From Candidatus Woesebacteria bacterium (lineage in GTDB: Bacteria > Patescibacteriota > Saccharimonadia > Saccharimonadales > EFPC-124): 64,000 nucleotides of DNA. The notes under the pieces were generated by a model that was given only the letters and a program-made list of their open reading frames with translations, did not search any database and was not told where the DNA came from. Positions 3,940-59,405 of this stretch are shown here, piece by piece (within the stretch, counting starts at the first letter, position 1; every line of letters begins with the position of its first letter). The stretch lies in assembly GCA_050115675.1 (NCBI GenBank), contig JASFQB010000007.1:10108-74107 (forward strand), in the 5' to 3' direction. Made by a program: the position numbers and the translations under genes.

Positions 3940-5970
3940 TTAGTTTAGCGATGTTAGCTGTCTATAGCGGCTAACTCTTTTGTTTAACTCTTTATATTGT
4001 AGCAGATCAAAGCCATTTTTAAGTAGATCCTCTACGCATGCTCGTACACGTTTAATTTGTTTTGTATCTGCCAAATTCGCAACTTGTAAGTTTAAAGCGC
4101 CGTGCTGCATTCGGCCGTAAATTTCTCCCGGTCCACGCAGGCGCAGGTCTACTTCTGCTAGGTAAAAGCCATCTTGTGATTGTTCAAGTTCTAACAATCG
4201 CTCTGTAGGACGCTTACCGCTTGACGGAATTAAATAGCAATAGCTTTTTTGCGCTCCGCGTCCTACACGCCCTCTAAGCTGGTGAAGCTGAGCGAGTCCA
4301 AATCGTTCCGCACCCTCAATTAGCATGACGGTGGCGTTTGGTATGTCAACCCCAACCTCAATAACGGTGGTCGCAACCAAGATATCTACTTCGCCATTTT
4401 TAAATTTTTTCATAACACTATCTTTTTCGTCTGCTTTCATTTGGCCATACAGCATCGCTAAGCGTCGATGAGTAAAAACGGTCTTTATCAGTTGATCGTA
4501 CTCGGCTTTGACGCTTTTTTGCTCATTTTGCTCACTTTCCTCACCCACCAGTGGACATACAATATAAACTTGACGTCCTTGCTGAATCTGCTCGTCTACA
4601 AATTGGTGCACCTTCTTGCGCTCAAATGATGAGCATAACTTTGTATTTATTCCTTGTCTGCCAGCGGGCAATTCGTCTATTATTGAAATCTCTAACTCGC
4701 CATAAACCGTTAATTGAAGACTGCGTGGTATTGGTGTCGCGGTCATGCTAAGCAAGTGTGGCATAAGCTCACTCTTTTTTAGCAGTTGTGCGCGTTGTTC
4801 GACGCCAAATCTGTGCTGCTCGTCAATTACTACAAAACCAAGTTTTTTAAATTTGCTATCCGCTTGAATCAGGGCGTGTGTACCTACGGCAACGTCAATT
4901 TGACCATTGGCCAAGTTTTGTTGAAGGCATTTTTTTGCCTTTGATGTTAGTGATCCTGTTAGAAGTGTAATCCGTACCCCAAGTGGCTCTAGTAATGTAG
5001 CCAGAGTGTTTGCGTGCTGAGCGGCCAAAATTTCTGTGGGGGCCATCAGTGCTGTCTGGTAGCCAGATTTTACAGCCATATAGATTGCCATAGCTGCAAC
5101 TGCGGTTTTCCCGGAGCCTACATCACCTTGTAATAAACGATTCATTGGTTGCTCTTGCTCAAAATCTTGCAAAACTTCCCACGCAGATCGTTTTTGAGCG
5201 TCTGTCATCGTAAAAGGAAGCGATCTTATAAATTGCTTTGCATTTTTTGAATCAAAGGGTATTTTGTAGCCGCGCAACTTGGCGTTTTCGCCTTTATTTA
5301 GTTGAGCAGCCATTAAAAGTTCAAAAAGCTCTTCAAAAGCTAGACGCTCTCGTGCACGAGCAAGCTGATCATCAGAATCAGGAAAGTGCAACTGTAAAAG
5401 AGCTTGATTGATGCACAACAAGTTGTGTTGCTTAATAACTTTGTTCGGTAAAGTCTCTGGCAAGATTTGCATAAGTGGCAGTAGCTCGCGCACAATTTTA
5501 CGAATTTGTAGTGAAGAAATACCCGCTACCTGACGATACACTGGCACAATTTTGCCAGTGTTAACTGTAAAATCTGCGACCTTCTCGATTACAGGGTTGC
5601 TTAACAAAAAGCGGTTGCGCTGTAACTCATAGCTACCCGAGAAAAACGCTGTCGAGCCTGGTTTCAATTGATTAACTCGATATGGTTGATTGAACCAAAT
5701 TGCCCTAACTTTGCCTGTCTCGTCATCTAAAACTGCCTCGGTAATATGCAATCGCTTTATGTGCCTGCCGGTAATTGTTTCGATCTTAGCTTTTAGCGTT
5801 ATATTTCCTGGTTTGATGTTGGCAATTTTTGCTATTTTAGAAAAATCATCATAACGACGAGGTAAAAAATATATTAAATCGCGAACGGTGACCACATTCA
5901 GCTGTGCTAACTTTTCAGCCAAAGATTTCCCCACTCCTTTTATTTCTGTCACGGGTGATTGCAAGTTCAT
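3940..5970 (-). CDS. recG: ATP-dependent DNA helicase RecG
   Basis: Walker A GDVGSGKT, DEQHRFG (DEAH-type), helicase C motifs QLRGRVGRG, N-terminal wedge/OB region. ATG at 5970 preferred over TTG at 5973. Confidence 0.9.
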   Translation of the reverse strand: MNLQSPVTEIKGVGKSLAEKLAQLNVVTVRDLIYFLPRRYDDFSKIAKIANIKPGNITLKAKIETITGRHIKRLHITEAVLDDETGKVRAIWFNQPYRVNQLKPGSTAFFSGSYELQRNRFLLSNPVIEKVADFTVNTGKIVPVYRQVAGISSLQIRKIVRELLPLMQILPETLPNKVIKQHNLLCINQALLQLHFPDSDDQLARARERLAFEELFELLMAAQLNKGENAKLRGYKIPFDSKNAKQFIRSLPFTMTDAQKRSAWEVLQDFEQEQPMNRLLQGDVGSGKTAVAAMAIYMAVKSGYQTALMAPTEILAAQHANTLATLLEPLGVRITLLTGSLTSKAKKCLQQNLANGQIDVAVGTHALIQADSKFKKLGFVVIDEQHRFGVEQRAQLLKKSELMPHLLSMTATPIPRSLQLTVYGELEISIIDELPAGRQGINTKLCSSFERKKVHQFVDEQIQQGRQVYIVCPLVGEESEQNEQKSVKAEYDQLIKTVFTHRRLAMLYGQMKADEKDSVMKKFKNGEVDILVATTVIEVGVDIPNATVMLIEGAERFGLAQLHQLRGRVGRGAQKSYCYLIPSSGKRPTERLLELEQSQDGFYLAEVDLRLRGPGEIYGRMQHGALNLQVANLADTKQIKRVRACVEDLLKNGFDLLQYKELNKRVSRYRQLTSLN

Positions 5971-5978
5971 CAAATAAT

Positions 5979-5984
5979 ATTGTA
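5979..5984 (-). promoter_or_regulatory. -10 box TACAAT 8 nt from recG ATG (leaderless-type)
   Basis: Minus strand reads TACAAT-attatttg-ATG with no Shine-Dalgarno in between. Confidence 0.45.
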
Positions 5985-5997
5985 CACAATACAGTGC

Positions 5998-6036
5998 AAA
6001 AAAGCTGCATACGCCAGTTAAGCTAGCGTATGCAGC
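5998..6036 (-). terminator. Intrinsic terminator after small membrane-protein gene
   Basis: GCTGCATACGC-N11-GCGTATGCAGC (11-bp stem) followed on the minus strand by TTTTTT. Confidence 0.75.
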
Positions 6037-6046
6037 CTAGAATTGA

Positions 6047-6241
6047 TTAGCGTGGCCCGTAGTAAATTGTTAAAAGTGCGATCGACATAATTGCCACGGC
6101 GTAAAACACAAGCCCCATCAAAAATGCGTATACGTGTAACGCATAAGGGCCAAAACCAACACTTCCCCCTGCTTGGGTGATGCTATAGCTCGCCAAAAGC
6201 CCAAGCAGCATAGCAACCAAATTGGCGTCTGCACCCTGCAT
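6047..6241 (-). CDS. Small two-helix membrane protein
   Basis: 64 aa with two hydrophobic spans. GAGG 6 nt upstream of the ATG. Own terminator. Confidence 0.5.
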   Translation of the reverse strand: MQGADANLVAMLLGLLASYSITQAGGSVGFGPYALHVYAFLMGLVFYAVAIMSIALLTIYYGPR

Positions 6242-6359: not shown

Positions 6360-7562
6360 TTAGCTTTCGATAAGACGCACAAAGTTGCGCTTTCCAACTT
6401 GCAAAATATCTTCGTGCTGAACTTTTACAACGTCGCTATCGACGCGACAACGGTTTATCTTAACTCCACCCTGCTTTATTAGTCGCATGGCCTGTGAATT
6501 GCTATCCGCAAGACCAGACTTAACAAGCAAATCAATAAGCTTTGCTTCGCCAGCATCAATTTTTAACGATTGTATTGCCGCAGTTGCCTCTCCTTTTGCC
6601 AGTGCGGCAGTTGCTTGTTTTGCCTCGTTCGCTAACTGTATTCCATGTACTAGCTTGGTAACTTCGTACGCCAGCGTTTTTTGAGCAGCTCTGCCTGCAG
6701 GGTTAGACTTAAATTCATTCAGCACATCTTCGATCTGTTGCCTTTCGAGTAGTGTGTAGACCTTAAGATATGTTTCTACGCCAGTGTCATCTGCGTTTAG
6801 CCAAAATTGGTAAAATTCAAAGGGCGAAGTTTTTTCTGCACAAAGCCATACAGCGCCTTCCTCGCTTTTGCCAAATTTTTTACCAGTAGCAGTATTTATA
6901 ATTAACGGACCTGTCCAGATATGAGCTTCTTTGCTGTCTATTTTTCTGATTAATTCAACGCCCGCAATGCTATTGCCCCATTGGTCTGCGCCAGCTAGCT
7001 GTAAAGTCACCTTGTGCGAACGAGAAAGATGTAAAAAATCGTAACCCTGAATTAACGAATAGCTAAATTCGGCATAGCTAATGCCTTTACCGCCCTTGCC
7101 AATTCTGGATTGTACAAATTCGCGATCAAGAAGTTGTGTCATAGAAAAATGTTTACCAACGTCTCTTAAAAACTGAAGGTAGCTAATGTTTTTAAACCAG
7201 TCATAATTATCCACAATTTCAAATTGTTCGCCTTCAAAAATTCGCCTGTACTCGTTTGCAATTGCTTGTTTGTTTTTTGATATTTCGTCTAGCGTTTTTA
7301 ACTGACGTTCATCTGTTTTGCCATCGGGGTCGCCAATCATACCGGTCGCCCCGCCAACTAAAAGCACAGCTCTATGGCCATGTCTAATAAAATGGCGGAC
7401 CATCATTGCCATGGCTAAATTGCCAACTGTCATAGAATTTGCACTAGGATCAACTCCCCAGTAAAAAGTTATTGGGTCGCCATCTAACTGGCCAAGGTCT
7501 TTAAAGGTAGTTTGATTTACAAAGCCTCGCCAGCTCAGTTCTTCAGAAAGTTTTGTTATCAT
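6360..7562 (-). CDS. tyrS: Tyrosine--tRNA ligase
   Basis: Class I signatures (PSANSMTVGNL HIGH-like, KFGKS KMSKS-like). C-terminal S4 RNA-binding domain (GLADSNSQAMRLIKQGGVKIN). Confidence 0.9.
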   Translation of the reverse strand: MITKLSEELSWRGFVNQTTFKDLGQLDGDPITFYWGVDPSANSMTVGNLAMAMMVRHFIRHGHRAVLLVGGATGMIGDPDGKTDERQLKTLDEISKNKQAIANEYRRIFEGEQFEIVDNYDWFKNISYLQFLRDVGKHFSMTQLLDREFVQSRIGKGGKGISYAEFSYSLIQGYDFLHLSRSHKVTLQLAGADQWGNSIAGVELIRKIDSKEAHIWTGPLIINTATGKKFGKSEEGAVWLCAEKTSPFEFYQFWLNADDTGVETYLKVYTLLERQQIEDVLNEFKSNPAGRAAQKTLAYEVTKLVHGIQLANEAKQATAALAKGEATAAIQSLKIDAGEAKLIDLLVKSGLADSNSQAMRLIKQGGVKINRCRVDSDVVKVQHEDILQVGKRNFVRLIES

Positions 7563-11499: not shown

Positions 11500-12852
11500 C
11501 TATGCTTTCTTTAAATAAGTATTTAATGCCTCTTTTAGAGATTGCACGGGTCTTATAAAGACGTGTTTTTTTGTAGATTTTGGCCCAATTACGTATTTGA
11601 AGCCAAGTTTATTTGCTTCGGATGCTCGACGATCACTGTTGGTGACCGACCTTACCTCTCCGCTTAGCCCAACCTCGCCAAATACTACGGCAGTTGGGTC
11701 TAATTGCATTTGTTTTGCTGCTGAAGCTATAGCCATGCATACGGCTAAGTCAGCAGCTGGATCTTGCAGCTTTATACCGCCAACAACGTTGATGTAAATA
11801 TCGCTATCAGATAAGTTTAACTTTGTCCGTCGCTCCAGGACAGCCACAAGCACGTTTAGGCGATTTAAATCAAAACCTGATGCCGTGCGTTTAGGATACC
11901 CGAAATATGATTTATTTACAAGTGCCTGTATCTCTACAAGCAAAGGACGGTTGCCTTCCATGGTAGCAAAAACCACAGACCCATCAGATGAGATACGTTC
12001 TTCTAGCAGTGCTGCAGACGGATTAAGTACTGGTTTTAGGCCAGTATCATCCATCTCAAAGATTCCAGCTTCATCTGTTGACCCATAGCGATTTTTTATT
12101 GCTCGCAAAACTTTAAAGCCGCCGTATCTGTCACCTTCAAGATTGACCACAACGTCTACCATGTGTTCTAAAATTTTTGGACCAGCAATACTCCCCTCTT
12201 TAGTCACGTGTCCAACCATAATTAGCGCTGTATCTGTGGCCTTTGCAGCTTGAGTTAGCAAGTTTGATGAGTTGGTAATTTGCCCAACACTACCTGCCGC
12301 TGAAGCAATATCATTCATTGTTAATGTTTGAATTGAATCAACGATTACCAATTTATATCCACACCCTTTTATTGTAGCCGCAATGTCGTCTGCGGAGGTA
12401 GACGATGCAAGATAAAGCTCATCATGCTCTACGCCCAACCTGTCTGACCGAACCTTCACCTGGCCGGCTGACTCTTCTCCACTCACGTATAGCACTTTGT
12501 TTGTGGCAGAGATAGCTTGTGCAACTTGCATTAGCAACGTAGACTTGCCAATTCCGGGTTGGCCAGCAATTAAAATGACACTGGCCGGAACAATTCCTCC
12601 GCCCAAAACTGCGTCCATGTCAGCAATTCTTGTGCTAATTCTGCCGCGACTACTACTCGGAGTAACCTTAGTGATCGACTGCGACTGTAGGGACCTGCCC
12701 TTACTGCTAGCGACTACGTTTGTAGCGCTTTGTTCTGTAAATTGCTCTACAAAACTATTCCAGGCACCACAGCCATCACAACGACCGCTCCACTTAGATT
12801 TGATCACTCCACATTGCTGGCAAACAAACTGTACTGCTGTCTTTTTGGCCAT
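11500..12852 (-). CDS. radA: DNA repair protein RadA/Sms
   Basis: N-terminal zinc ribbon CQQCG...CDGCGAW, Walker A GQPGIGKST, KNRYG motif, C-terminal Lon-like domain. Confidence 0.9.
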   Translation of the reverse strand: MAKKTAVQFVCQQCGVIKSKWSGRCDGCGAWNSFVEQFTEQSATNVVASSKGRSLQSQSITKVTPSSSRGRISTRIADMDAVLGGGIVPASVILIAGQPGIGKSTLLMQVAQAISATNKVLYVSGEESAGQVKVRSDRLGVEHDELYLASSTSADDIAATIKGCGYKLVIVDSIQTLTMNDIASAAGSVGQITNSSNLLTQAAKATDTALIMVGHVTKEGSIAGPKILEHMVDVVVNLEGDRYGGFKVLRAIKNRYGSTDEAGIFEMDDTGLKPVLNPSAALLEERISSDGSVVFATMEGNRPLLVEIQALVNKSYFGYPKRTASGFDLNRLNVLVAVLERRTKLNLSDSDIYINVVGGIKLQDPAADLAVCMAIASAAKQMQLDPTAVVFGEVGLSGEVRSVTNSDRRASEANKLGFKYVIGPKSTKKHVFIRPVQSLKEALNTYLKKA

Positions 12853-12859
12853 ATTAGTA

Positions 12860-12868
12860 AGTATAACA
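12860..12868 (-). promoter_or_regulatory. Extended -10 TGTTATACT 7 nt from radA ATG (leaderless-type)
   Basis: Minus strand reads TGT-TATACT-tactaat-ATG with no Shine-Dalgarno. Confidence 0.5.
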
Positions 12869-20391: not shown

Positions 20392-20400
20392 TGGTAAACT
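20392..20400 (+). promoter_or_regulatory. Extended -10 TGGTAAACT 6 nt from pepN ATG (leaderless-type)
   Basis: TGG-TAAACT-tatctt-ATG with no Shine-Dalgarno. Confidence 0.5.
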
Positions 20401-20406
20401 TATCTT

Positions 20407-22935
20407 ATGACAAAAGCAGTTAGACGTTTACTACCATTTTTTAAACCAGAAAATTATAAAATTAACCTTGATCTTACAAAAAGAGAAAAACGCAGTTTTA
20501 GCGGCCGCGCAACAATTACAGGTACGGCAAAAGAAGCTGGTCAAATTATTCTACATAGTAAAGATTTAGCCATAAATAAAGTTACTGTTGACGACCAGCA
20601 GGTAAATTTTGAACTTTTAGGCAAAACAGACGAGCTAGTAATTAAATCTAACAAAATTATGCAGGGCTCGTGTACGATCACTATTGATTTTGATGGCAAA
20701 ATCAACGACGCTATGCATGGTCTTTACCCCTGTTATTTTAAGCACGACGGTAAAGACAAAGAACTGCTAATGACCCAGCTGGAGTCACATCACGCGCGCG
20801 AGCTATTCCCATGCATTGACGAGCCAGCCGCCAAAGCAGTTTTTGAAATTACACTTACCACAGAGCAAGGCGTTACGGTTTTAAGTAATACGCCAGCAAA
20901 ATCTCAAATCAACAGAGACAAGGCGCTTGTGACCGAATTTGAACCAACGCCAAAAATGAGCACCTATTTGCTTGCGTTTGTTATTGGTGAGCTGGAATAT
21001 CTTGAAACAACAAACAAACACGGTGTTTTAGTGCGAACTTACGCAACACCAGACAACGTCAAGCACACAAAATTTGCGCTAGAGCTTGCCGCAAAAACAC
21101 TTGACTATTACGATGACTACTTTGATGTGCCCTATCCTCTGCAAAAATGCGATATGGTCGCTGTTCCGGATTTTGCAGCTGGCGCAATGGAAAACTGGGG
21201 ACTGGTAACTTACCGCGAAAGCTGCATGCTAGTTGACCCCAAAAACACTCCGGCAGATGTGCGCGAATGGGTTGCAACAGTGGTGACACACGAACTATCA
21301 CACCAGTGGTTTGGTAACCTAGTCACCATGGAATGGTGGGACGATTTGTGGCTAAACGAAAGTTTTGCTAAATGGATGGAGCATTACAGCGTTGATCATT
21401 TTTATCCAGAATGGAAGGTTTGGGAGCAATTTGCAGCTGGCGAACAGCAGGGCGCGTTGGCCCGTGACGGACTTGCAAATGTTCAGGCCGTGCGACAACC
21501 AGTCTATCACCCAGACGAACTGCACTCGTTATTTGACTCTGCAATTGTTTACACCAAAGGCTCTTGCCTAATACGCATGCTGCACGAATATTTGGGAGCT
21601 GACGACTTTAAAAAAGGTCTGCGTTTATACATGAAGCGTCACCAATACAGCAACACAGTAGCGCAAGATTTATGGACGGCGCTAAGCGAAGCTTCTGGTA
21701 AAGACATCGCGGCGTTTATGAATCGCTGGATAAATCAGCCTGGGCACCCAGTTGTAAACGTTGACGTTAGCGAAAATAAAGTTGCCATTAGTCAAAAACG
21801 CTTTTTTGCCAACCCAACACAAGCTAAAAAAGGTCAGCAATTTACGTGGACAATTCCACTTTTAAGCAATCTAAGCGACGATACTCTTGATAGCACAAAA
21901 CTAGCCACAACGACCAAAACCTCTGATCTTGTATTTGTAAACTCTGGCTACACGGGGTTTTATCATACTAAATATAATGTCGAACATCTTGAGAAATTGG
22001 CTCAAAAAGTAAAAAATGGCGAGCTTTCTATTGTTGACCGCCTAAGCTTGCTAACAGATGGCGTTGCACTTGCAAAGGCAGGGTTAAGCTCTACCTCGGA
22101 CTTAATCGCCTTAACTGCCAACTACAAAAACGAGAAATCATTCCCTGTTTGGAACTCAATTGGCAGTGTGGTAGCTACGCTAAAGATACTAGTCAATAAT
22201 AACAAAGATCTAAAACCGCATTTACAAAAGTATGTACGCAACTTGGCCATTAGCGAATACAAACGCTTGGGCTGGGAACACATTAAAGGTGAGTCATATT
22301 TTGACGAGCTTCAACGTCCAAACATGATTAGCTACATGGCATACGCTAAAGATCAAGAGGTTATTAATAAATGTTTGCAAATTTTTGATAATGCAAGCCG
22401 TCCAGAAGATATAACTCCAAATATTCGGTCGATCGTTTACTCGGTAGCTTCACATGAGCGCGGAGAAAACGCATATAACAAATTGCTCAGCTGGTACAAA
22501 AAAACCACCTCGGCCGAGGAACGAATGAGCCTTGCTGCTGGCATAACATTTGTAAAAAACCAAGAACTTGCCCACAAAATTACTGCGCTATTTACAACCA
22601 AAACGATAAAACAGCAGGATCTATTTTACTGGTTCATTTACCTAATCCGTACCGAACATGGCAAGGCACCAGCCTGGCAATGGATGACCGAAAACTGGCA
22701 ATGGATTAGCGATACGTTCAAGGGCTCGCACGACTACAGTGACTTTCCTAAGTACGCTGCAAATGCGTTAAGTACTCAAGAATACCTAGACAAATATCGC
22801 GAATTTTTTACGCCAAAAATGGACGAAACAGCTATATCGCGCGTAATAACCCAGGGGCTCGAGGATATAGAAGTGCGAGTATTGTGGCGCGAACGCGACT
22901 TGCAAGCTGTAAGTAAGTTTTTAAAAAGTATTTAG
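20407..22935 (+). CDS. pepN: Aminopeptidase N (M1 family)
   Basis: GAMENWG exopeptidase motif. HELSHQWFGN...WLNESFA (HExxH-x18-E zinc site). ERAP1-like C-terminal domain. Confidence 0.9.
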   Translation: MTKAVRRLLPFFKPENYKINLDLTKREKRSFSGRATITGTAKEAGQIILHSKDLAINKVTVDDQQVNFELLGKTDELVIKSNKIMQGSCTITIDFDGKINDAMHGLYPCYFKHDGKDKELLMTQLESHHARELFPCIDEPAAKAVFEITLTTEQGVTVLSNTPAKSQINRDKALVTEFEPTPKMSTYLLAFVIGELEYLETTNKHGVLVRTYATPDNVKHTKFALELAAKTLDYYDDYFDVPYPLQKCDMVAVPDFAAGAMENWGLVTYRESCMLVDPKNTPADVREWVATVVTHELSHQWFGNLVTMEWWDDLWLNESFAKWMEHYSVDHFYPEWKVWEQFAAGEQQGALARDGLANVQAVRQPVYHPDELHSLFDSAIVYTKGSCLIRMLHEYLGADDFKKGLRLYMKRHQYSNTVAQDLWTALSEASGKDIAAFMNRWINQPGHPVVNVDVSENKVAISQKRFFANPTQAKKGQQFTWTIPLLSNLSDDTLDSTKLATTTKTSDLVFVNSGYTGFYHTKYNVEHLEKLAQKVKNGELSIVDRLSLLTDGVALAKAGLSSTSDLIALTANYKNEKSFPVWNSIGSVVATLKILVNNNKDLKPHLQKYVRNLAISEYKRLGWEHIKGESYFDELQRPNMISYMAYAKDQEVINKCLQIFDNASRPEDITPNIRSIVYSVASHERGENAYNKLLSWYKKTTSAEERMSLAAGITFVKNQELAHKITALFTTKTIKQQDLFYWFIYLIRTEHGKAPAWQWMTENWQWISDTFKGSHDYSDFPKYAANALSTQEYLDKYREFFTPKMDETAISRVITQGLEDIEVRVLWRERDLQAVSKFLKSI

Positions 22936-24015: not shown

Positions 24016-24538
24016 AACTCAAACGCTGAATTGCGCTGGGGCCAAATTGCCCAATTGCCAATCTATGTGCAGATGTTCCGTAGCCTACGTGTTTTTCAAA
24101 GCCATACTGCGGATATTTTTGCCCGTAATTTTGCATAAGATTATCGCGCGCCACCTTGGCAATAATTGACGCGGCAGATATTAACGGAACTTTGGCGTCG
24201 CCACCAACGATGGTCGAGACCCTAACATCATCAATATAATTATGGTTTCCATCAAGCAAAATTAGCTCTGGTAAAATACCAAACGGCACAAGCGCCTGCT
24301 TTGCTGCTTTTTTAAGTGCAGCCGTTAAGCCATTTTTGTCTATAAAGTCATGAGAAGCCCAGCCCACACCAATAATTTTGGCATTTTGCCTAATCTGCAA
24401 GGCAAGTTGCAAGCGCTTTTTAGCTGTAAGTTTTTTAGAGTCAATCGCATCAACCAAATTGTCATCAATCGCAACGGCAGCCACGCAAACTGGGCCCGCC
24501 AAACAACCTCTACCAACCTCGTCTATACCTACAATCAT
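23984..24538 (-). CDS. rnhB: Ribonuclease HII
   Basis: GIDEVGRGCLAGPV catalytic motif, DSKKL, ASIIAKV. ATG at 24538 (MIVGIDE) preferred over the track start. Confidence 0.9.
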   Translation of the reverse strand: MIVGIDEVGRGCLAGPVCVAAVAIDDNLVDAIDSKKLTAKKRLQLALQIRQNAKIIGVGWASHDFIDKNGLTAALKKAAKQALVPFGILPELILLDGNHNYIDDVRVSTIVGGDAKVPLISAASIIAKVARDNLMQNYGQKYPQYGFEKHVGYGTSAHRLAIGQFGPSAIQRLSFGKLGAANVD

Positions 24539-24546
24539 TGTTTGAT

Positions 24547-24574
24547 AGTATACACAAAGTTGGCAACCAGCCAA
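24547..24574 (-). promoter_or_regulatory. rnhB promoter TTGGCT-N16-TATACT, -10 8 nt from ATG (leaderless-type)
   Basis: Read on the minus strand directly after the rplS terminator. Confidence 0.5.
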
Positions 24575-24589
24575 AATTTTAAGCAATAT

Positions 24590-24623
24590 AAAAACACCCG
24601 CCATGTTTTTGACAGGTGTTTTT
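24590..24623 (-). terminator. Intrinsic terminator after rplS
   Basis: AAAAACACC-N16-GGTGTTTTT. Confidence 0.7.
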
Positions 24624-24630
24624 ATATAAA

Positions 24631-25972: not shown

Positions 25973-25978
25973 AACCTG

Positions 25979-25993
25979 ATGTTATGGTAACAT
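25979..25993. promoter_or_regulatory. Back-to-back divergent -10 boxes (TAACAT on each strand, 3 nt apart)
   Basis: cat-aacctg-ATGTTA-tgg-TAACAT-atgtaa-atg. Each hexamer lies 6 nt from its own ATG (25972 minus, 26000 plus). Confidence 0.45.
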
Positions 25994-25999
25994 ATGTAA

Positions 26000-27295: not shown

Positions 27296-27301
27296 TATAA
27301 T
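27296..27301 (+). promoter_or_regulatory. -10 TATAAT 8 nt from ATG 27310 (leaderless-type)
   Basis: TATAAT-ataagagc-ATG. Confidence 0.45.
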
Positions 27302-27309
27302 ATAAGAGC

Positions 27310-37965: not shown

Positions 37966-38003
37966 GTGCCCAACACTCCATTTTTGGTTTGTTGGGCACT
38001 TTT
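37966..38003 (+). terminator. Intrinsic terminator after TerD-like gene
   Basis: GTGCCCAAC-N16-GTTGGGCAC then TTTT. Confidence 0.6.
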
Positions 38004-38049
38004 AAATTTAAAAAACTTTTACAATTTTTATGTTTTTTGCATTTTGCTA

Positions 38050-38078
38050 TTGACTTTGTTGTTACAATATAACATAAT
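38050..38078 (+). promoter_or_regulatory. Promoter TTGACT-N17-CATAAT for the TerC/DUF475-type gene
   Basis: Hexamers in an AT-rich spacer about 52 nt upstream of the ATG at 38131. Confidence 0.5.
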
Positions 38079-38130
38079 AGCTCACTGTTGTGCTGATTGG
38101 TACACGAACCTACCATTAGATTGGAACGTG

Positions 38131-39282
38131 ATGTCAGAAAAGACGTCAACACTCAGGACGTTTCTGGGATCCATCATTGTCACCCTGCTGACGCTGGGCG
38201 CCGTTTTTTTCATTGGCGGACCGACTGCGCTGACATTGGTTGCGATTTTGGCAATTCTGGAAGTGTCTCTGTCGTTTGACAATGCCGTAATGAACGCCAC
38301 CATTCTTACTAGGATGTCAAAATTTTGGCAAAAGATCTTCCTGACGGTCGGCATTTTGATTGCCGTGTTTGGCATGCGAATGATCTTTCCGATTCTGCTG
38401 GTTTCGGTTACGACCGACATGAGCATGATCAGCGCCTTCAACCTGGCACTCAACGAGCCTGAAAAGTACCAGCATGCGCTGGAGGTCGCCCACCCGGCTA
38501 TTGCCGCATTCGGTGGCGTCTTCTTGCTGATGATCGTGCTGGGATTCATGTTCGAATCTCGGGATCTTAAGTGGATCCCCATCGAGTCAAAGCTTGCGTC
38601 GTTTGGCGAAAGCTTCAACGGGAAGTTCGGACCGATCAACACCGCGCTCGAAAAGGTTGGTGTCGACATCCTCTCCTGCATCATTACGTCGCTCAGCATC
38701 GTTGCCTGTGCCTACACACTGGCTCCTGTGCCGGGCACAGTTTTGACCGCTGGTTTTGTCGGGTTGGCCACCTACCTTGTTGTCAACGGTCTTGGAGTCT
38801 TCTTCGAGTCGCGTGGCGAGAACGAAGACTCTGCCGTCTCTGGCGGAATTTCTGGTGGTGCCGAGGCTCACAAGTCCTCCAGTGCCACTGCGGTTGTCGG
38901 CAAGGCTGCGCTCTTCCTCTTCCTGTACCTGGAAGTTCTGGATGCGTCGTTCAGCTTTGACGGCGTAGTTGGAGCTTTTGCTATTTCTTCAAACATCTTC
39001 ATTATTGCCGCTGGACTTGGCATTGGTGCAATGTACATTCGTTCGATCACAGTCTATCTTGTCAACCAGGGTACGCTGGCCGAGTACGAATACCTCGAGC
39101 ACGGCGCCCACTGGGCAATCGGCACGCTGGCAGTGATTCTGCTTCTGTCGATCAAGCTCCATGTACCTGAGATCGTAACGGGCATGACCGGCGTGGGCTT
39201 CATCGCCCTCGCCTGGATCAGCTCCATGATCCGCAACCGCCACAAGGCAAGGGGCGCCGTTCCTGCAATCATGACACAGTAA
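38131..39282 (+). CDS. TerC-superfamily integral membrane protein (TerC/DUF475 type)
   Basis: About 9-10 TM spans. Duplicated signature LEVSLSFDNAV and LEVLDASFSFDGVV (cf. TerC E..LS.DN). ATG at 38131; the track N-terminal extension is AT-rich spacer. Confidence 0.75.
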   Translation: MSEKTSTLRTFLGSIIVTLLTLGAVFFIGGPTALTLVAILAILEVSLSFDNAVMNATILTRMSKFWQKIFLTVGILIAVFGMRMIFPILLVSVTTDMSMISAFNLALNEPEKYQHALEVAHPAIAAFGGVFLLMIVLGFMFESRDLKWIPIESKLASFGESFNGKFGPINTALEKVGVDILSCIITSLSIVACAYTLAPVPGTVLTAGFVGLATYLVVNGLGVFFESRGENEDSAVSGGISGGAEAHKSSSATAVVGKAALFLFLYLEVLDASFSFDGVVGAFAISSNIFIIAAGLGIGAMYIRSITVYLVNQGTLAEYEYLEHGAHWAIGTLAVILLLSIKLHVPEIVTGMTGVGFIALAWISSMIRNRHKARGAVPAIMTQ

Positions 39283-39324: not shown

Positions 39325-39355
39325 ACCCAAGATAATGATCTTGGGTTTTCTTTTT
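39325..39355 (+). terminator. Intrinsic terminator (right island border)
   Basis: ACCCAAGAT-aatg-ATCTTGGGT then TTTCTTTTT. Confidence 0.8.
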
Positions 39356-39374
39356 GATCATACAAAATAACTTG

Positions 39375-39908
39375 ATGCCTACAAATGAATATGTCATTAT
39401 ATATAATATGTCATTGGTTGTTATTGCCCACAATATCCGCAGTACACACAACGTTGGATCAATTTTTAGAACCTGCGAAGGCTTTGGTATAAATAAAATT
39501 ATTTTTACCGGATACACGCCATACCCACGCGTTATAAACGACGACCGTCCACCACACATTAGCAAAAAAAATACAGCCCAAATAGCAAAAACCGCACTTG
39601 GCACCGAAAGCATGGTAGATTTTGAATACGCACAAGACCCAATTGATGCAATTTCAAAACTAAAAGAACAAAAATACACCATTGTCGCACTTGAACAATC
39701 TTCTGGCTCCATAATGCTGCAAAGTTACAAAACAAAACCCAAAAAACTTGCACTACTTTTAGGAGAAGAAGTACATGGCATTACGCCAGAGCTGATTAAA
39801 TTCTGTGACGTTACTCTAGAGATTCCTATGACAGGTAAAAAAGAATCTTTTAACGTTAGTGTTGCAACTGGCATTGCACTTTACGAGCTAAGTATCAAAA
39901 ACATCTAG
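39375..39908 (+). CDS. SpoU/TrmH-family RNA 2'-O-methyltransferase
   Basis: HNIRSTHNVGSIFRTCEGFG, LLLGEEVHGI, IPMTGKKESFNVSVATGIALYEL motifs. Start uncertain (39375 or 39408); the track start at 39354 lies in the terminator T tract. Confidence 0.75.
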   Translation: MPTNEYVIIYNMSLVVIAHNIRSTHNVGSIFRTCEGFGINKIIFTGYTPYPRVINDDRPPHISKKNTAQIAKTALGTESMVDFEYAQDPIDAISKLKEQKYTIVALEQSSGSIMLQSYKTKPKKLALLLGEEVHGITPELIKFCDVTLEIPMTGKKESFNVSVATGIALYELSIKNI

Positions 39909-43700: not shown

Positions 43701-44504
43701 ATGCACCACGTTTAGATTAAAGTCCTTTAAGCTAAACCTGTCTTGGTCGCTTAAATTAGCACCGGTCTGCACACAAAGCAATATTTCGTGAGCATCTTTA
43801 TCTTCTATACGACTGTAGTGGGCATCACAGGTCACAACTACAGGTATATCCAGATCTTTGGATAGCTTTATAATCTTTTCATTCACCATTGTCTGTTCTG
43901 GCCAACACTTTGGAGCATCAGGATGACCATGATCTTGAACTTCAAGATAGTATCTGTCGCCAAATAAATTTTTATACCACTTTGCAAATTCGTAGGCTTT
44001 TTTGTCTTGACCCTCTCTAAGATGTTCTGCGACTTCGCCACCAATGCAGCCCGAAAGACAGATAATCCCTTCGTTGTGCTTCTCTAATAAGTCATGATCG
44101 ATGCGAGGTTTGTAGTAATATCCATCAAGGTTTGCAATAGTACTTAGTCTAAATATGTTCTCAAGTCCTCTACGATTGCTCGCCAGTAGCACCAAGTGAT
44201 ATCGCGCTCGATCATGAGATGCATCCTTATCGGTATGCTTACGAGGTGCCATGTAAGTTTCTATGCCAATAACTGGTTTGATTCCTCGCGCCTTAGCCTC
44301 TTTATAAAACTCAATAGCGCCAGATATCGTACCGTGATCGGTTAGCCCTACCGCAGTCATACCGCATTCTTGCGCCCAATCTAAAAGCTGTGGCACCTTT
44401 TGCAGGCCATCAAGCACACTGTAATGTGTGTGGTTGTGCAAATGCACATAGTCGCTAGCTTTAAGCTGCGGCCTAGTATCCGACAAATTACCCTCCAAGG
44501 CCAT
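40773..44504 (-). CDS. dnaE: DNA polymerase III alpha subunit (DnaE) with extra C-terminal ~100 aa
   Basis: PHP domain HLHNHTHYSVLDG, palm/fingers motifs (GRGSAAGS, PDIDVD), HhH, OB fold. 1243 aa. Confidence 0.9.
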   Translation of the reverse strand: MALEGNLSDTRPQLKASDYVHLHNHTHYSVLDGLQKVPQLLDWAQECGMTAVGLTDHGTISGAIEFYKEAKARGIKPVIGIETYMAPRKHTDKDASHDRARYHLVLLASNRRGLENIFRLSTIANLDGYYYKPRIDHDLLEKHNEGIICLSGCIGGEVAEHLREGQDKKAYEFAKWYKNLFGDRYYLEVQDHGHPDAPKCWPEQTMVNEKIIKLSKDLDIPVVVTCDAHYSRIEDKDAHEILLCVQTGANLSDQDRFSLKDFNLNVVHPQDIVDRWGKDYPEVVLNSRVIADRCDVDFDFDSMHIPKFDVPEGQTEKSFLDELVFKGLAERYGDIERVKVDNMTIDECKKVLNNDALERVEYELGIVDGMGFNGYFLIVQDFINWGKAQGIIFGPGRGSAAGSIIAFALRITDLDPLKYDLLFERFLNPDRISMPDIDVDIQDTRRDEVIQYCSDKYGKNRVSNIVTFGKMAARAAVRDVARTLEVPYAEADRLAKLIPQPVQGKNIPLVKCLEQDADFKNEYDINPVSRRVIDQAIRLEGTIRSHGVHACGVVIAPDELVKFIPLEMAQKGVVATQFPMGQVEELGLLKMDFLGLSNLTIIKNTMRIMKRVYDAEVDLDRLPLDDKPAYELLSRGDTTGVFQLESAGMKRYLKELQPSVFDDIIAMVALYRPGPMQFIDDFIARKHGRKKIEYLHPLMKNALQNTYGILVYQEQVMQISKELCGFTGGQADTLRKAIGKKKIDVMQKMKVDFVDGAVKNGANRDMMNGFWKQLEDFAAYCFNKSHAACYGLIAYWTAYLKAHYPAAFMAALMTSDNDDTDRLAIEITECKHMGIEVLPPDVNESFAEFAVVPGKDQVRFGLSAVKNVGANAVEEILRARREGGEFETIEDFTKRVSVRIVNRKNLESLVKAGAFDRFGERAELLFNMDAILAFASKLQKEAASGQANLFGDDSNLVPMASLQLMAAPAPAPEPEKLLWERELLGLYLSSHPLDPYDNYFSEQTHDIGDLKSTHDDMVVSVGGVISAIRQIATKNGDKMAFVKIEGKTGEIELIIFPKSYEKFQSLLVQDKVILAKGKLSAKDRNGNIGDELKILADDIVEILLEVAQRYRPTGQKIDPPAQGKLRVKRIPGGGFNGFNTTSTKAPTASGKKVAYRPVEESVRQQPNSMPVDRLYVHVKDPQDSDSLLKLKQMLNEYPGDNDVVLVLGVDKKSAIKVPFKVNPSDELQKNVAKLLGENCVALK

Positions 44505-44561
44505 ATCACAAATGTATTGTATATAATTATAGACTAAAACTCGTCAGATCAGAATTTTTTT

Positions 44562-51133: not shown

Positions 51134-51420
51134 AATACCTTGGGAACTTTAATTTGGCTTTGCTGTTGTGCGGGGGCATTTTGCAAAAGCTCCTCACGCG
51201 AAACATCATAATTGATAATCTCATCGTCGCGCATAACATTTTTTAAACCATCCACTTGATAAGTTGGTTCGATATTTACCGTGCTTAAAGAGTCAAGCTG
51301 TTTTACGTGGTCTAAAATTGCACCCAGTTCGTTTTGGAGTTTTTTTACTTCTTCGTCTGTTACGCCAATTTTAGAAAGCGCAGCAACATATTTAACATCA
51401 TCAAAAGTAATCGTAGACAT
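51130..51420 (-). CDS. gatC: Asp/Glu-tRNA amidotransferase subunit C
   Basis: 96 aa (VKYVAALSKIGVTDEE...L..IL..V..L). 4-nt overlap with gatA. ATG at 51420 lies 10 nt from TGTTATAAT. Confidence 0.8.
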   Translation of the reverse strand: MSTITFDDVKYVAALSKIGVTDEEVKKLQNELGAILDHVKQLDSLSTVNIEPTYQVDGLKNVMRDDEIINYDVSREELLQNAPAQQQSQIKVPKVL

Positions 51421-51494
51421 AACTATAGTAATTATAACAGTGGTGAGCATTAATGCAACATCAACAATTCAGTTATTACATAACGATCACGCGA

Positions 51495-52370: not shown

Positions 52371-52408
52371 TAGCGCCGTTACTGCAACGGCGCTAATTTT
52401 TCATTTTT
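52371..52408 (+). terminator. Intrinsic terminator; right arm overlaps uvrB stop codon
   Basis: TAGCGCCGTT-actgc-AACGGCGCTA then ATTTTTCATTTTT. Confidence 0.7.
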
Positions 52409-54363
52409 CCTTTAATGTCTGTAATTATATCGCGCAATTCGGCCGCTTCTTCAAATTGCAAATTTGCCGCAGCAAGCTCCATTTGTGATGTTAAATCGCG
52501 TAACAAGCTTGGGTATTCATCCTTAGGAATCTTATCAAGATTTTTTTGAGCGGTTTTAGCTTCTTGAGGTATTACCGCACGCAGACCTTCGTCTATTCCC
52601 TTTTTAACACCCGTTGGCGTGATTCCGTTGCGCTCATTATACGCCTGCTGAATTTCGCGGCGCCTTGCAGTTTCGTCAATTGTAACCTGCATGCTTTTTG
52701 TAATTTTGTCAGCATACATGATTACGTGGCCGTCAACATGCCTTGCGGCACGCCCAACAGTTTGAATTAACGCCTGCTCGCTGCGCAGAAAACCTTCTTT
52801 GTCGGCGTCTAAAATTGCCACTAGACTAACCTCTGGCAAGTCCAGTCCTTCACGAAGTAAGTTGATGCCAATTAAAACATCGTAAACGCCCGTTCGCAAA
52901 TCACGTAAGATATCGCTACGCTCAAGAGTATCAATATCAGAATGCAAATACGCACATTTTATACCAAGATCAGCTAAATAATCGTTTAAATCTTCTGACA
53001 TTCGCTTAGTAAGCGTTGTAACCAGCACGCGATGACCTTTTTGTGTTGTTTCGCGAATTTCTGCAATTAAATCATCAATCTGACCAGTAGTGGGTCGCAC
53101 TTCGATTGGTGGATCAAGCAGGCCTGTTGGTCTGATAATTTGCTCAACGGGCTGTGTACTTCTGCTAAGCTCGTACTCACCTGGAGTTGCGCTAACGTAA
53201 ACCACTTGGTTCACATGTCGCTCAAATTCTAAAAATTTTAGCGGACGATTATCTAACGCACTTGGCAGCCTAAAGCCATGATCAACCAAGACTTCTTTGC
53301 GTGCACGGTCGCCATTGTACATGCCACGCACCTGAGGAATAGTCATGTGCGACTCGTCAATAAATAGCAAAAAATCATCTGGGAAGTAGTCTAACAGAGT
53401 GGCCGGCTGCTCACCAGGTTCGCGGTTTGTTAGGTAGCGACTATAGTTTTCTATACCTTTTACAAAGCCTGTTTCTTCTAACATTTCTAGGTCAAATTTT
53501 ACCCTTTGCCCCAAGCGCTGAGCTTCTAATAATTTGTTTTGCGATTTAAACTCCTTAATACGCTGTTCGGACTCTTGGCGGATTTTATCTATTACTACCT
53601 TTAGTTTTTCTTTGGGAGTAACGTAGTGAGAGCCAGGAAAAATGCTGACTTCTGACAATTCTGCAATAATCTCACCCGTCAAAGCGTCAACATTAGTGAT
53701 ACGATCTATTTCGTCGCCAAAAAACTCTACACGATACGCGCTTTCTGCACCAGCAGGAAAAACGTCAACAACATCACCACGAACCCTAAAAGTAGAACGG
53801 TGGAAGTCTATATCGTTTCGTTGGTACTGAACATCTGTAAGGTGCCTTATAAATTTATCTTGCTTGCGCTGCTCGCCTTTTTTTACATGCACGGCCATTT
53901 CTCCATAATCCTCTACAGCGCCAATACCATAAATACAGCTTACGCTAGCAATAATAATTACATCGCGTCGGGTTAATAACGACGCGGTGGCAGCGTGGCG
54001 CAGACGATCAATTTCTTCGTTTATTTTGCTGTCTTTTTCTATGAATGTGTCTGTGCTGGGCATATATGCCTCTGGCTGGTAGTAATCAAAATAGCTTACA
54101 AAATAATGCACCTCTGCATCAGGAAAAAACTGTTTAAATTCGCTATAAAGCTGAGCAGCAAGCGTTTTGTTATGAACTAGAACCAAGGTCGGAACCTGCC
54201 TTTGGGCAATAATGTTAGCCATAGTAAAGGTTTTACCCGAGCCAGTTATGCCAAGCAAAGTCTGTTCGCGCTGGCCATTTTTTAAGCCATCAACAAGCTG
54301 AGCGATTGCCTGAGGCTGATCGCCAGTGGGCTGAAACGGTGTATGCAGCTTAAAGTTGGCCAT
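52393..54363 (-). CDS. uvrB: Excinuclease ABC subunit B
   Basis: GITGSGKT Walker A, beta-hairpin region, DESH, helicase C motifs, C-terminal UVR domain (EEAAELRD). Confidence 0.9.
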
Positions 54364-54370
54364 GCTTATC

Positions 54371-54379
54371 ATTATAGCA
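54371..54379 (-). promoter_or_regulatory. Extended -10 TGCTATAAT 7 nt from uvrB ATG (leaderless-type)
   Basis: Minus strand reads TGC-TATAAT-gataagc-ATG, which supports the start at 54363. Confidence 0.5.
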
Positions 54380-54442
54380 CTTAATATTTTTTCTAAAAAG
54401 TAAAGCTGGCGACCAAATTTCGGCCACCAGCGCAGCAGAAAG

Positions 54443-55294: not shown

Positions 55295-55819
55295 ATGGGA
55301 ATCCTTAGGACCAACAGGGCGCTGGGAGCGTTCGACTGTATTGATACGGTTGACCTGACTGAGCTGCACGGATGCAATGTCCAGGTTGTTGCTGGCGAAC
55401 CGTCAACAACGGTTGGTGCAAGTGGTCCACGCTGGGGCATTAGCTCAGTAGAGGTCGAGCATACCAGCGCAAACGGCATCAACACGCTAGTAGTCAGGAG
55501 ATCAAGCTCCAGAGGCTTGAGCGCAACAGCTTCAAACACCGGAACTGCTAAAACTGGACCAGGAGGCTACGCCAACGCCAACACTGGCTACGATGGGCCA
55601 ATCCGGCCAGGAATGTCTGTCACCGTCCGAAACACAGGTGACGCCTCAGCCACAGGCCCTGGCAGCTGCGCCAATACTGGAGTTTCGCGTGGCCGCACGT
55701 CACAGACAGAAAAGAAGACGACTATCGTTCGCGACCACAAGCCCTTAACGATTGACCGACAGGCGCAGCTTACTGTAAAAATTGTTGTGTCGCCCGGCGC
55801 CAAAGTTTTCTATCTGTAA
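55295..55819 (+). CDS. Hypothetical GC-rich protein with internal TGPG..ANTG repeats
   Basis: AAGGAGG SD before the ATG at 55295. TGPGGYANANTG and TGPGSCANTG repeats. A spot count gives about 60% G+C. Confidence 0.45.
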   Translation: MGILRTNRALGAFDCIDTVDLTELHGCNVQVVAGEPSTTVGASGPRWGISSVEVEHTSANGINTLVVRRSSSRGLSATASNTGTAKTGPGGYANANTGYDGPIRPGMSVTVRNTGDASATGPGSCANTGVSRGRTSQTEKKTTIVRDHKPLTIDRQAQLTVKIVVSPGAKVFYL

Positions 55820-57168: not shown

Positions 57169-58392
57169 TTATTTTTCTAGCATATGGTCATCGATCTTTT
57201 GTAAAATTTGAGCTTCGATTACGCTATGTCCAAGGTACCTGACAAAAATTTCGTTCTGCAAACTTTCTTTTAGGTAACGCGAACCACGCTGTGTATATGG
57301 TAATTTCATGCAATAATCTTCAGCAATGTCCAACAAGTTAAACGACAGCGCTCCGTCACCGTACGGCAAACCCACATAGTCCCTATTACACCAAAACTTA
57401 AGCGTAGGATCTATATCAGCAATTGCATCTTCTGGATTTCTCCAATGAAGGTCTTCAAGCTGAAGATGTGGCTCAAACGATTTTGGATAGTGACAAGCGT
57501 CTGCATTTGCGAAATGACGTTTTATTACACGCCAATGCACTTGCTGTCCACCCAAAGAAACACCACAATTACCACCATCGATTAGCGCATTGACTAGCGC
57601 TCTACCAAAATCCTTACGAACCTGGCTCAGTTTAGAGTATGACCCATACAAGCGAATTTCGTTTAAATAATACAATACTAAGGCCGTTAGCCTGACTGAC
57701 AAACCAAGCGTCTGTCCGTCTTTTGTGGGTAAAATGTACACATAACCAAGCTCTTTTATTTGAGTAACATTATGACATTTTTTGCTGGCAATTTTGCTTG
57801 CAAATTTACCCCATCTTTCTATAGGCATTATTATAATTTCAGCGTCTCGCCTTTCAAAATCGGCTGGCTTTAATCCTGCGTATAGTTTATTAAACTGTTT
57901 TAACCAGCCAGTGTTCTCTACAAAACGAAGCGCACCATATACTTCGGGCAGTCGCTCGTGTTTAAGCATAGAGTCAACGGATCTGTAGCCAAGATGAGAC
58001 ATAACAGCAGTAGGAGGCATTTCACGCAATATACGCCTTGCTGCACTTTTTTTAAGCACCCAGCAATCTTCTAGAACATCTGCTTTCTCTATAACGCTTT
58101 TTACATGCTCAAAAATATCGTTAACAGACGCTTCTCTTTTGCAACCTATTGTTTTTAAAAAGTGACTATCATCTTGCTGATACCTTGAAAGTAGTGCATG
58201 GTAAAGTTCTGGGCCAGTCGTGTCTTTATGGTCCAGGTCCAGCTGCCTAGTCCCCTCATGTGCAGCCGCCAAAATATCACCAACAAGACCAATATCATAA
58301 CCGCACTGTCCACTTAAAGATTCCAACTGCCGAAGATTCTCGCTAAACAGAGGTTCTTTTGCGTCTAGTAGGTCACTTAAAAGCTTAGCCAT
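57169..58392 (-). CDS. Hypothetical 407-aa soluble protein
   Basis: Long uninterrupted ORF. TGTTAAAAT-N6-ATG start context. No motif recognised. Confidence 0.6.
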   Translation of the reverse strand: MAKLLSDLLDAKEPLFSENLRQLESLSGQCGYDIGLVGDILAAAHEGTRQLDLDHKDTTGPELYHALLSRYQQDDSHFLKTIGCKREASVNDIFEHVKSVIEKADVLEDCWVLKKSAARRILREMPPTAVMSHLGYRSVDSMLKHERLPEVYGALRFVENTGWLKQFNKLYAGLKPADFERRDAEIIIMPIERWGKFASKIASKKCHNVTQIKELGYVYILPTKDGQTLGLSVRLTALVLYYLNEIRLYGSYSKLSQVRKDFGRALVNALIDGGNCGVSLGGQQVHWRVIKRHFANADACHYPKSFEPHLQLEDLHWRNPEDAIADIDPTLKFWCNRDYVGLPYGDGALSFNLLDIAEDYCMKLPYTQRGSRYLKESLQNEIFVRYLGHSVIEAQILQKIDDHMLEK

Positions 58393-58398
58393 ATTATC

Positions 58399-58407
58399 AT
58401 TTTAACA
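58399..58407 (-). promoter_or_regulatory. Extended -10 TGTTAAAAT 6 nt from ATG 58392 (leaderless-type)
   Basis: Minus strand reads TGT-TAAAAT-gataat-ATG, within the 25-nt gap after pfkB. Confidence 0.5.
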
Positions 58408-58417
58408 TAAGCGCCAA

Positions 58418-59389
58418 CTATAGGTCGGTAATAGTAATTGGCATTGCGTGTAAATTATGGCTTCCGTGCAGTATGCCAGTTTTAGCTCCAATTTTTGTAA
58501 CCACGCTTGTGGAGTTTGCGCTTGCAAAAATTACAGCATCATTTAGTGTTTTACCTTGGGCAATCATTGCAGTAAAACCAGAACCAAAAGCATCACCAGC
58601 ACCAAGACGATCTACAACTTTTACATCTTCGTACATGCCCGCCGTAATTATCTGTTTACCATCGCTAGCGATAGCACCATTTGGACCATCGCTAACTATT
58701 ACAATGTCTACAAAATGCACAGCGTGGCGCACAAGTTCTTCGCTTGTTGTACCCTCTACTAAAATTTGCATTTCTTCTTTATTGGCGATCAACACAGAAA
58801 CATCCTCTAGCAAAGGGCGTATCTTTTCTGGCTGCTGCAACTCTGCCGTAGACGGATTAAAAGCAATTTTTGTATTGTGTTTTGCGGCCAGGCTTACAAT
58901 TTTTTCTAGTAGTTGTATAGAGCCAACCGACGAAAGATAAAGCCAGTCAGCCTGCTCTAGCGCCTGCAAATTAATGTCCGAGCCGTCCGCACGCAACTTT
59001 TGCCCATGCGCACGCATAATTGTTCGCTCGCCATTTGGTGCTAAAATAACCGTAGCATAACCAGTTTTATAGCGCTCATCCTGATGAACATATCTTGTAT
59101 CTATCCCCTCAGAATCGAGCTCATGCAAAATACTCTCGCTCATGGCGTCAGCACCCAAAACACCCATAAAAATACTTTCCAAACCTTGCCGAGCAAACGT
59201 TGTTGCCGCATTTGTGGCGTTACCGCCAGACGTAATTATAACTTTTTCAAGATCTAGTTTTGCGCCAAGCGGCAACTGAATCACTCTTTCGCCATCTACT
59301 TGTCGTGGCAAAAAAATGTCAGGCGCAAGCAAATAAACGTCCTGAGTCACCGACCCTATGCACAGTATTTTTGGTGTTATATTGCCCAT
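58418..59389 (-). CDS. PfkB-family carbohydrate kinase (ribokinase-like)
   Basis: N-terminal GS..QDV, TSGGNATNAA, C-terminal GAGDAFGSGF signature. Confidence 0.8.
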   Translation of the reverse strand: MGNITPKILCIGSVTQDVYLLAPDIFLPRQVDGERVIQLPLGAKLDLEKVIITSGGNATNAATTFARQGLESIFMGVLGADAMSESILHELDSEGIDTRYVHQDERYKTGYATVILAPNGERTIMRAHGQKLRADGSDINLQALEQADWLYLSSVGSIQLLEKIVSLAAKHNTKIAFNPSTAELQQPEKIRPLLEDVSVLIANKEEMQILVEGTTSEELVRHAVHFVDIVIVSDGPNGAIASDGKQIITAGMYEDVKVVDRLGAGDAFGSGFTAMIAQGKTLNDAVIFASANSTSVVTKIGAKTGILHGSHNLHAMPITITDL

Positions 59390-59396
59390 TTAGATA

Positions 59397-59405
59397 ATTA
59401 TAACA
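59397..59405 (-). promoter_or_regulatory. Extended -10 TGTTATAAT 7 nt from pfkB-family ATG (leaderless-type)
   Basis: Minus strand reads TGT-TATAAT-tatctaa-ATG. Confidence 0.5.

Follow-up and report, generated by a model that had tools for sequence, protein, structure and literature searches.

The closest described counterpart of the gene starts considered here is the 'group C' of GeneMarkS-2, in which a Pribnow box lies 6–8 nt from the start of operon-first genes and a Shine-Dalgarno (SD) sequence precedes the other genes; in this group 25–50% of operons are leaderless, and it accounts for 90% of species in Actinobacteria and 97% in Deinococcus-Thermus (PMC6028130). Leaderless transcription has been verified by differential RNA sequencing (dRNA-seq) in Mycobacterium tuberculosis and Deinococcus deserti (PMC6028130). 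The literature on ribosomes of the Candidate Phyla Radiation (CPR) discusses loss of the anti-SD sequence only for some Parcubacteria (PMC9297842), and for TM7x there is a set of 188 transcription start sites (PMID 35975994), which was used in PMC12641261. Here we examine a stretch of 64,000 nt, hereafter the window, from contig JASFQB010000007.1 (positions 10,108 to 74,107, assembly GCA_050115675.1), for which a preliminary description had proposed that at least 11 genes, including recG, radA and uvrB, carry a −10-like hexamer 6–8 nt ahead of the ATG, with no SD. We consider it likely, from the sequence-level evidence below, that the listed genes are promoter-proximal genes of Candidatus Saccharibacteria with leaderless or near-leaderless mRNAs (predicted leaders of 0–5 nt). 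The mechanism is a known one; in the literature searched we found no account of leaderless expression in Saccharibacteria, Patescibacteria, CPR or TM7, so that it is the lineage for which we found no published description.

The assignment to Saccharibacteria follows from UvrB (52393–54363, minus strand), whose 30 closest genomic matches are all Candidatus Saccharibacteria or Saccharimonadia metagenome-assembled genomes at 65–81% identity, the next-best matches being from Bacillaceae, Chloroflexota and Lachnospiraceae at ~60–64%. The GC content of the window is ~0.44. The comparison set comprised 46 Saccharibacteria loci (30 genomic loci surrounding uvrB and 16 metagenomic loci surrounding radA), and control loci from Bacillaceae (of similar GC content) and Lachnospiraceae were subjected to the identical analysis.

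All 11 boxes and their ATGs were found where the preliminary description had placed them. On the minus strand these are recG (5968–5987, gtgTACAAT-N8-ATG 5970), radA (12850–12868, TGTTATACT-N7-ATG 12852), rnhB (24536–24555, TATACT-N8-ATG 24538), a 98-aa orphan, orphA (25970–25987, TAACAT-N6-ATG 25972), pilB (31204–31222, TGTTATAAT-N7-ATG 31206), uvrB (54361–54379, TGCTATAAT-N7-ATG 54363), a conserved 407-aa protein without a Pfam match (58390–58407, TGTTAAAAT-N6-ATG 58392) and a pfkB-family kinase (59387–59405, TGTTATAAT-N7-ATG 59389). On the plus strand they are pepN, encoding an M1 aminopeptidase (20392–20409, TGGTAAACT-N6-ATG 20407), a 218-aa orphan, orphB (25985–26002, TGGTAACAT-N6-ATG 26000), and a 144-aa membrane protein (27293–27312, TATAAT-N8-ATG 27310). 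Three further minus-strand genes are of a near-leaderless type: dnaE, encoding the DNA polymerase III alpha subunit (44502–44524, TACAAT-N11-ATG 44504, predicted leader ~4–5 nt), gatC, the first gene of the gatCAB operon (51418–51439, TGTTATAAT, with TATAAT at N10 from ATG 51420), and tktN, the transketolase N-subunit (62315–62336, TATAAT-N10-ATG 62317); the N10 boxes of the latter two had likewise been described correctly. Pfam confirms the names of RecG, RadA, M1 aminopeptidase, RNase HII, T2SSE/PilB, PfkB, GatC and Transketolase_N.

The absence of an SD from the 11 listed genes was borne out, as none has a match of at least 4 nt located 3–14 nt upstream of the start. The extended −10 element TGn, said to be carried by most of them, is canonical in 7 of the 11 (radA, pepN, orphB, pilB, uvrB, the 407-aa protein and pfkB). 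The preliminary description had also inferred two coexisting initiation modes from clear GGAGG sites at other genes. Both modes are indeed present side by side: SD matches of at least 5 nt precede 19 of the 59 open reading frames (ORFs) of the window, and the SD genes are mostly operon-internal. Among the genes it had cited, nusA has only a weak AAAGG, and the malic enzyme was not identified. The SD-led first genes of the window have a −10 box just 17–31 nt upstream, and promoters in Saccharibacteria genomes are generally very near start codons.

To ensure that starts were not picked via the motif, we applied a motif-first test, counting for each spacer length the occurrences of TGNTANNNT ahead of an ATG that begins an ORF of 100 aa or more. 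In the window, spacers of 6, 7 and 8 nt gave 3, 5 and 1 matches, respectively, against a total of 8 for the other 28 spacers between 0 and 30. For TGnTAnnnT this amounts to 9 cases at N6–8 versus 0.86 expected (Poisson P = 3e-7), and the hexamer TA[ACT]A[AC]T gave 12 cases versus 2.4 expected (P = 7e-6). We then defined a signature at the ORF level, namely a strong box at N5–9 ahead of an ATG or GTG within the first 60 codons, with the expectation taken from internal decoy ATG and GTG codons. The signature is present in 11 of the 59 window ORFs (2.5 expected) and in 120 of the 578 ORFs of the 46 Saccharibacteria loci (21%; 17 expected), a 7-fold excess over the internal decoys, and every Saccharibacteria locus of at least 9 kb supplies at least one case. 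There was no excess in the Bacillaceae loci (17 of 374 ORFs versus 28 expected), and the Lachnospiraceae loci gave 6 of 83 ORFs versus 5 expected. The hexamer-to-ATG spacing is thus enriched over background both in the window and in the 46 loci, as the preliminary description required.

The ATG spacer histogram peaks at N6 and has decayed by N11, within 5 nt, the counts from N6 to N11 being 39, 31, 21, 25, 15 and 11 over a background of ~5. Since N6 is the canonical distance, it would place +1 on the A of the ATG. The peak is strong for ATG, small for GTG (at N6–7) and missing for TTG, which fits a purine transcription start combined with the AUG/GUG requirement of leaderless translation. When sites were selected by the hexamer only (n = 90), G was found at −14 in 57% and T at −15 in 47%, and TGn was present in 41% versus 6% expected (P = 3e-21); T-12, A-11 and T-7 are imposed by the selection and therefore are not independent evidence. 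The −35 element is weak, a match of at least 4/6 being found in 26 of 90 sites versus 9 of 90 at control spacing. Consistent with this weakness, a consensus promoter scan that requires both hexamers found no promoter of the leaderless set other than that of pfkB. Leaderless-type boxes also differ from SD genes in operon position. Tightly coupled positions (a gap of at most 15 nt from, or an overlap with, the upstream same-strand ORF) account for 10% of the former versus 39% of the latter (Fisher P = 6e-9), and the upstream gene is divergent for 33% versus 17%. Taken together, four independent features (spacing, start codon, TGn and operon position) point to a sigma-70 −10 element that would act at the level of DNA and would have its transcription start on the start codon.

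At four of the listed genes, recG, rnhB, pilB and uvrB (all on the minus strand), the sequence upstream of the box leaves hardly any space for a leader, or none. Strong terminator-like hairpins with T-runs end here 16–50 nt ahead of the ATG. The terminator-like hairpin upstream of recG (5998–6037, a 16-bp stem followed by TTTTTT) ends 27 nt ahead of the ATG, and that upstream of uvrB (54395–54431, 12 bp with 7 GC, followed by TTTACTTTTT), located after a NUDIX gene, ends 31 nt ahead. Upstream of the rnhB promoter, a hairpin with a T-run (24585–24627) contains ATG 24604; at pilB, a hairpin followed by TATTTTTTT (31222–31257) contains the alternative starts ATG 31239 and TTG 31245, its T-run entering the −10 box. 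If these hairpins terminate transcription, the transcript start would be confined to the few bases between box and ATG. Between tyrS and recG there is also an unlisted 64-aa hydrophobic ORF (6047–6241, minus strand) with a GAGG SD, the stop codon of which precedes the 5998–6037 hairpin.

Two other explanations of the boxes bear on these observations. The pattern could have arisen by chance or as a selection artefact, given that TA-rich hexamers are frequent (the window has 2357 TANNNT sites) and that an in-frame TAA or TAG stop before an ORF-opening ATG mimics TAnnnT. A stop-codon artefact predicts a 3-nt periodicity, and such a periodicity is visible in the Bacillaceae control; the Saccharibacteria peak, however, spans all three phases (N6, 7, 8 and 9) before it decays and is missing from the Bacillaceae and Lachnospiraceae loci, which rules the stop-codon artefact out. 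With the 7-fold excess over internal decoys, the retention of the box at orthologues over a GC range of 0.40–0.60 and rejection at P < 1e-6, we regard an origin by chance or selection as extremely improbable. Alternatively, the box could work in RNA, as an A/U-rich non-SD element that recruits ribosomes within a longer 5′ untranslated region transcribed from an upstream promoter, similar to the 'group B' motifs. The genome is moderately AT-rich, and the boxes take the place of the SD, being about as far from the start, with GeneMarkS-2 placing both 6–8 nt upstream (PMC6028130). Yet an RNA element would not be expected to be co-enriched with a TG at −15/−14, which is contacted on double-stranded DNA, nor to be depleted at operon-internal genes, where it would be most needed. 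The lack of a peak for TTG starts and the hairpins at recG, pilB and uvrB, which leave no room for an upstream promoter, also argue against it, making an element acting in RNA very unlikely.

A third possibility accepts the boxes as real promoters and places some of the true start codons downstream of the listed ATGs, which would give those mRNAs ordinary leaders. In-frame alternatives with SD-like sequences are present at recG (TTG 5922), the 407-aa protein (TTG 58272) and dnaE (TTG 44486), and for the orphans and the membrane protein there are no homologues by which to anchor the N-termini. Against this, Pfam domains or conserved N-termini begin before the alternatives in six genes. The RecG wedge domain starts from residue 10, ahead of TTG 5922; the RadA Zn-ribbon starts from residue 9, with an MAKK N-terminus conserved in orthologues; the N-domain of the M1 aminopeptidase starts from residue 13 of PepN; position 1 of the RNase HII profile aligns with residue 3 of RnhB; the GatC profile fits the 96-aa form; and the N-termini of UvrB orthologues agree in M-x-x-F-x-L. 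Orthologues of the 407-aa protein have N-termini that line up with its residue 1. An identical UvrB is encoded on a 65.7-kb contig from the assembly of run SRR11713588, where the public gene call is likewise 656 aa, that is, from the same ATG, and at pfkB an in-frame TAA directly precedes the ATG. We therefore consider downstream starts very unlikely. The preliminary description had further held that the pattern corrects start codons that the ORF track places too far upstream, which holds for three genes: at rnhB and pilB the longer ORF-track starts (ATG 24604, and TTG 31245 or ATG 31239) lie within hairpins and were therefore discarded, and at uvrB the orthologue N-termini and the 656-aa call agree with the listed ATG.

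The leaderless arrangement is the best-supported reading of the listed starts, and its conservation among Saccharibacteria orthologues varies from gene to gene. At uvrB the box is kept in 28 of 30 orthologues, typically as TGYTACAAT located N6–9 before an ATG or GTG, in genomes with a GC content of 0.40–0.60; Bacillus uvrB orthologues have GGAGG instead. At gatC, TG(n)TAnAnT is found at N6–N10 in 21 of 23 orthologues. Smaller samples gave TATACT or TACAAT at N6 in 3 of 5 recG orthologues, a box at N6 in 3 of 4 rnhB orthologues and a box at N7–N9 in 3–4 of 5 pepN orthologues, and the readable dnaE orthologues (L001, L007, L012 and probably L006 and L008) have TATAAT near the start, at N7–N11. 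The 407-aa protein is mixed, with an extended −10 at N8–N12 in 7 orthologues and an SD-like sequence in 3–4. Depending on the gene, the leaderless state is therefore either conserved or labile.

Several observations weigh against the leaderless reading. The radA orthologues are mostly SD-led, with TGCTAAACT followed by a ~20-nt leader containing GGAGG and a GTG or TTG start, and the pfkB orthologues that could be read, several in number, are SD-led as well, the leaderless state therefore being evolutionarily labile. Pfam gives no support to 4 of the 11 listed genes, namely both orphans, the membrane protein and the 407-aa protein; among the four, orthologues turned up in the fetched loci for the 407-aa protein alone. 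The box of orphA is weak. At a spacing of 8–11 nt, either the discriminator is unusually long or the mRNA carries a leader of 1–5 nt. Finally, some boxes lie 25–30 nt from an upstream same-strand gene, as at the 407-aa protein, so that read-through transcripts with an internal ATG may exist. All sequence-level tests that we ran nevertheless agree with the leaderless reading put forward in the preliminary description, and on this basis we infer that transcription would start at the ATG and that such 5′-terminal AUGs would be translated.

The preliminary description had also remarked that all three DNA-repair genes of the window fall into the leaderless class. This is true of recG, radA and uvrB in the window, and dnaE is nearly of the leaderless type too. 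As a rule it is unsupported, and we rejected an association with DNA repair as a conserved property, since the radA orthologues mostly have SD leaders with GTG or TTG starts. Three out of three is in any case unremarkable, because about one fifth of ORFs, and an estimated (not counted) one third or so of transcription-unit heads, are of this type. The link between leaderless starts and DNA repair is anecdotal.

In the mechanism that we propose, a housekeeping sigma-70-type RNA polymerase would read an extended −10 element of the form TGnTAnAAT, in most cases with a −35 element that is poor or missing, and would begin transcription at a purine ~7 nt further downstream, this purine being the first base of the start codon (A in ATG, G in GTG). 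The 5′ end of the mRNA would then be the start codon, and the ribosome would initiate on the 5′-terminal AUG without SD pairing. GGAGG sites on very short leaders (~10–30 nt) would serve the operon-internal genes, along with some of the first genes, of the same genome, so that the two modes would coexist.

This arrangement resembles that of the group C organisms (M. tuberculosis, Streptomyces, Corynebacterium and D. deserti) in having the −10 box 6–8 nt from the start, SD sites elsewhere and both ATG and GTG starts. In extent, the 25–50% of operons in group C compare with ~20% of ORFs in Saccharibacteria, estimated to correspond to ~1/3 of transcription units. Unlike the high-GC Actinobacteria or Deinococcus, Saccharibacteria are Patescibacteria (CPR) with a small genome and a GC content of 0.40–0.60; moreover, TGn is prominent (41%) and the −35 element is weak, and the coincidence of transcription start and start codon is experimental in group C organisms whereas here it is derived from sequence. 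The boxes are also similar to the extended −10 promoters of E. coli and Gram-positive bacteria, with a TG one base upstream of the hexamer, a poor or absent −35 element and a predicted start ~7 nt downstream. Unlike the E. coli and Bacillus extended −10 promoters, which are normally found on leadered mRNAs, those of the window are systematically coupled to a start codon predicted to lie at +1.

A third likeness concerns the divergent orphans. The textbook leaderless mRNA is that of phage lambda cI transcribed from PRM, which has a 5′-terminal AUG and whose gene is separated from a divergent neighbour by a compact regulatory region. The pair of orphans (ATGs 25972 and 26000) resembles this system in architecture alone, and no sequence or family relationship was found. 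Of the TAACAT-N6 boxes that the preliminary description had assigned to both strands, both are present, that of orphA lacking TGn and falling below the strong-box threshold. Each box is one arm of a perfect palindrome, ATGTTA-TGG-TAACAT (25979–25993), and the divergent ATGs lie 27 nt apart. Since the orphA and orphB promoters overlap, use of one should preclude use of the other; the palindrome could instead be an operator. For both orphans, Pfam gave no match and the fetched loci no orthologue.

Tentatively, and with slightly more doubt than conviction, we extend these observations to Saccharibacteria as a leaderless-rich lineage, in which an extended −10 element fused to the start codon would drive about one fifth of genes, kept across the class at uvrB, gatC, recG, rnhB and dnaE over a GC range of 0.40–0.60, with radA and pfkB flipping to SD leaders of 15–20 nt. 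In Saccharibacteria and CPR bins, gene starts are called by SD-tuned tools, and a leaderless class corrects them, here at rnhB and pilB. The promoter model TGnTAnAAT, with no need for a −35 element, would be of use for the emerging genetics of epibionts. A small-genome, moderate-GC lineage with a reduced ribosome would join the short list of heavy users of leaderless translation, which is relevant to the question of an ancestral origin of leaderless initiation in Terrabacteria-like lineages, and orthologues that switch between leaderless and SD-led states offer natural material on the evolution of initiation modes. As a speculation, the reduced ribosome of CPR bacteria could be connected with the trait, as could, equally speculatively, life on Actinobacteria hosts that have the same expression signals, which would ease gene exchange between host and epibiont.

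Beyond the Saccharibacteria, the Chloroflexota loci (L050–L079) showed a small excess of the signature (7 versus 2.2 expected). Among metagenome contigs with a radA 43–50% identical (L107, L131, L142, L149, L160 and L120), several have 3–4 leaderless-type starts per 12–21 kb, and the radA of L120 itself has TATAAT-N7-ATG. The trait may thus extend beyond Saccharibacteria.

Some other starts in the window or at orthologous loci were noted in passing. In five tyrS orthologues (L082, L085, L086, L091 and L096), TATACT is found at N6–9 in a leaderless-type arrangement. At the window tyrS (6360–7562, minus strand), neither a −10 box nor an SD can be recognised ahead of ATG 7562, and the Rfam scan, which covered the whole window, returned a single tRNA-Leu (2405–2488, minus strand), with no T-box, at tyrS or elsewhere, and no riboswitch. 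ATG 3935 (minus strand), located 4 nt past the recG stop, is preceded by TAAACT-N6. We did not count this box as a leaderless signal, as it is missing from the orthologues and translational coupling is likelier. ATG 11468 (minus strand), an operon-internal or closely spaced start, has both AAGGAG and TAAAAT-N6 and was left unclassified as ambiguous. For the SpoU-family methylase (39354–39908, plus strand), the longest ORF reaches position 2 of the Pfam profile only at its residue 21, which suggests a start at ATG 39408 or TTG 39414, directly after TATATAAT.

The window also contains a Ter-type stress-response set (31293–34757, minus strand; 37966–39282 and 55295–55819, plus strand), in which a TerC/DUF475 membrane protein comes after a row of genes for HAD hydrolase, PRTase_3, C-C_Bond_Lyase and PRTase_3. 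The gene labelled terD in the preliminary description lies 16 kb away and owes its label to that description alone. The ORFs at 36.3–38 kb have neither an SD nor a −10 signal. Between 32 and 40 kb the GC content is 0.49, versus 0.42–0.45 elsewhere in the window, and this stretch may be an acquired island.

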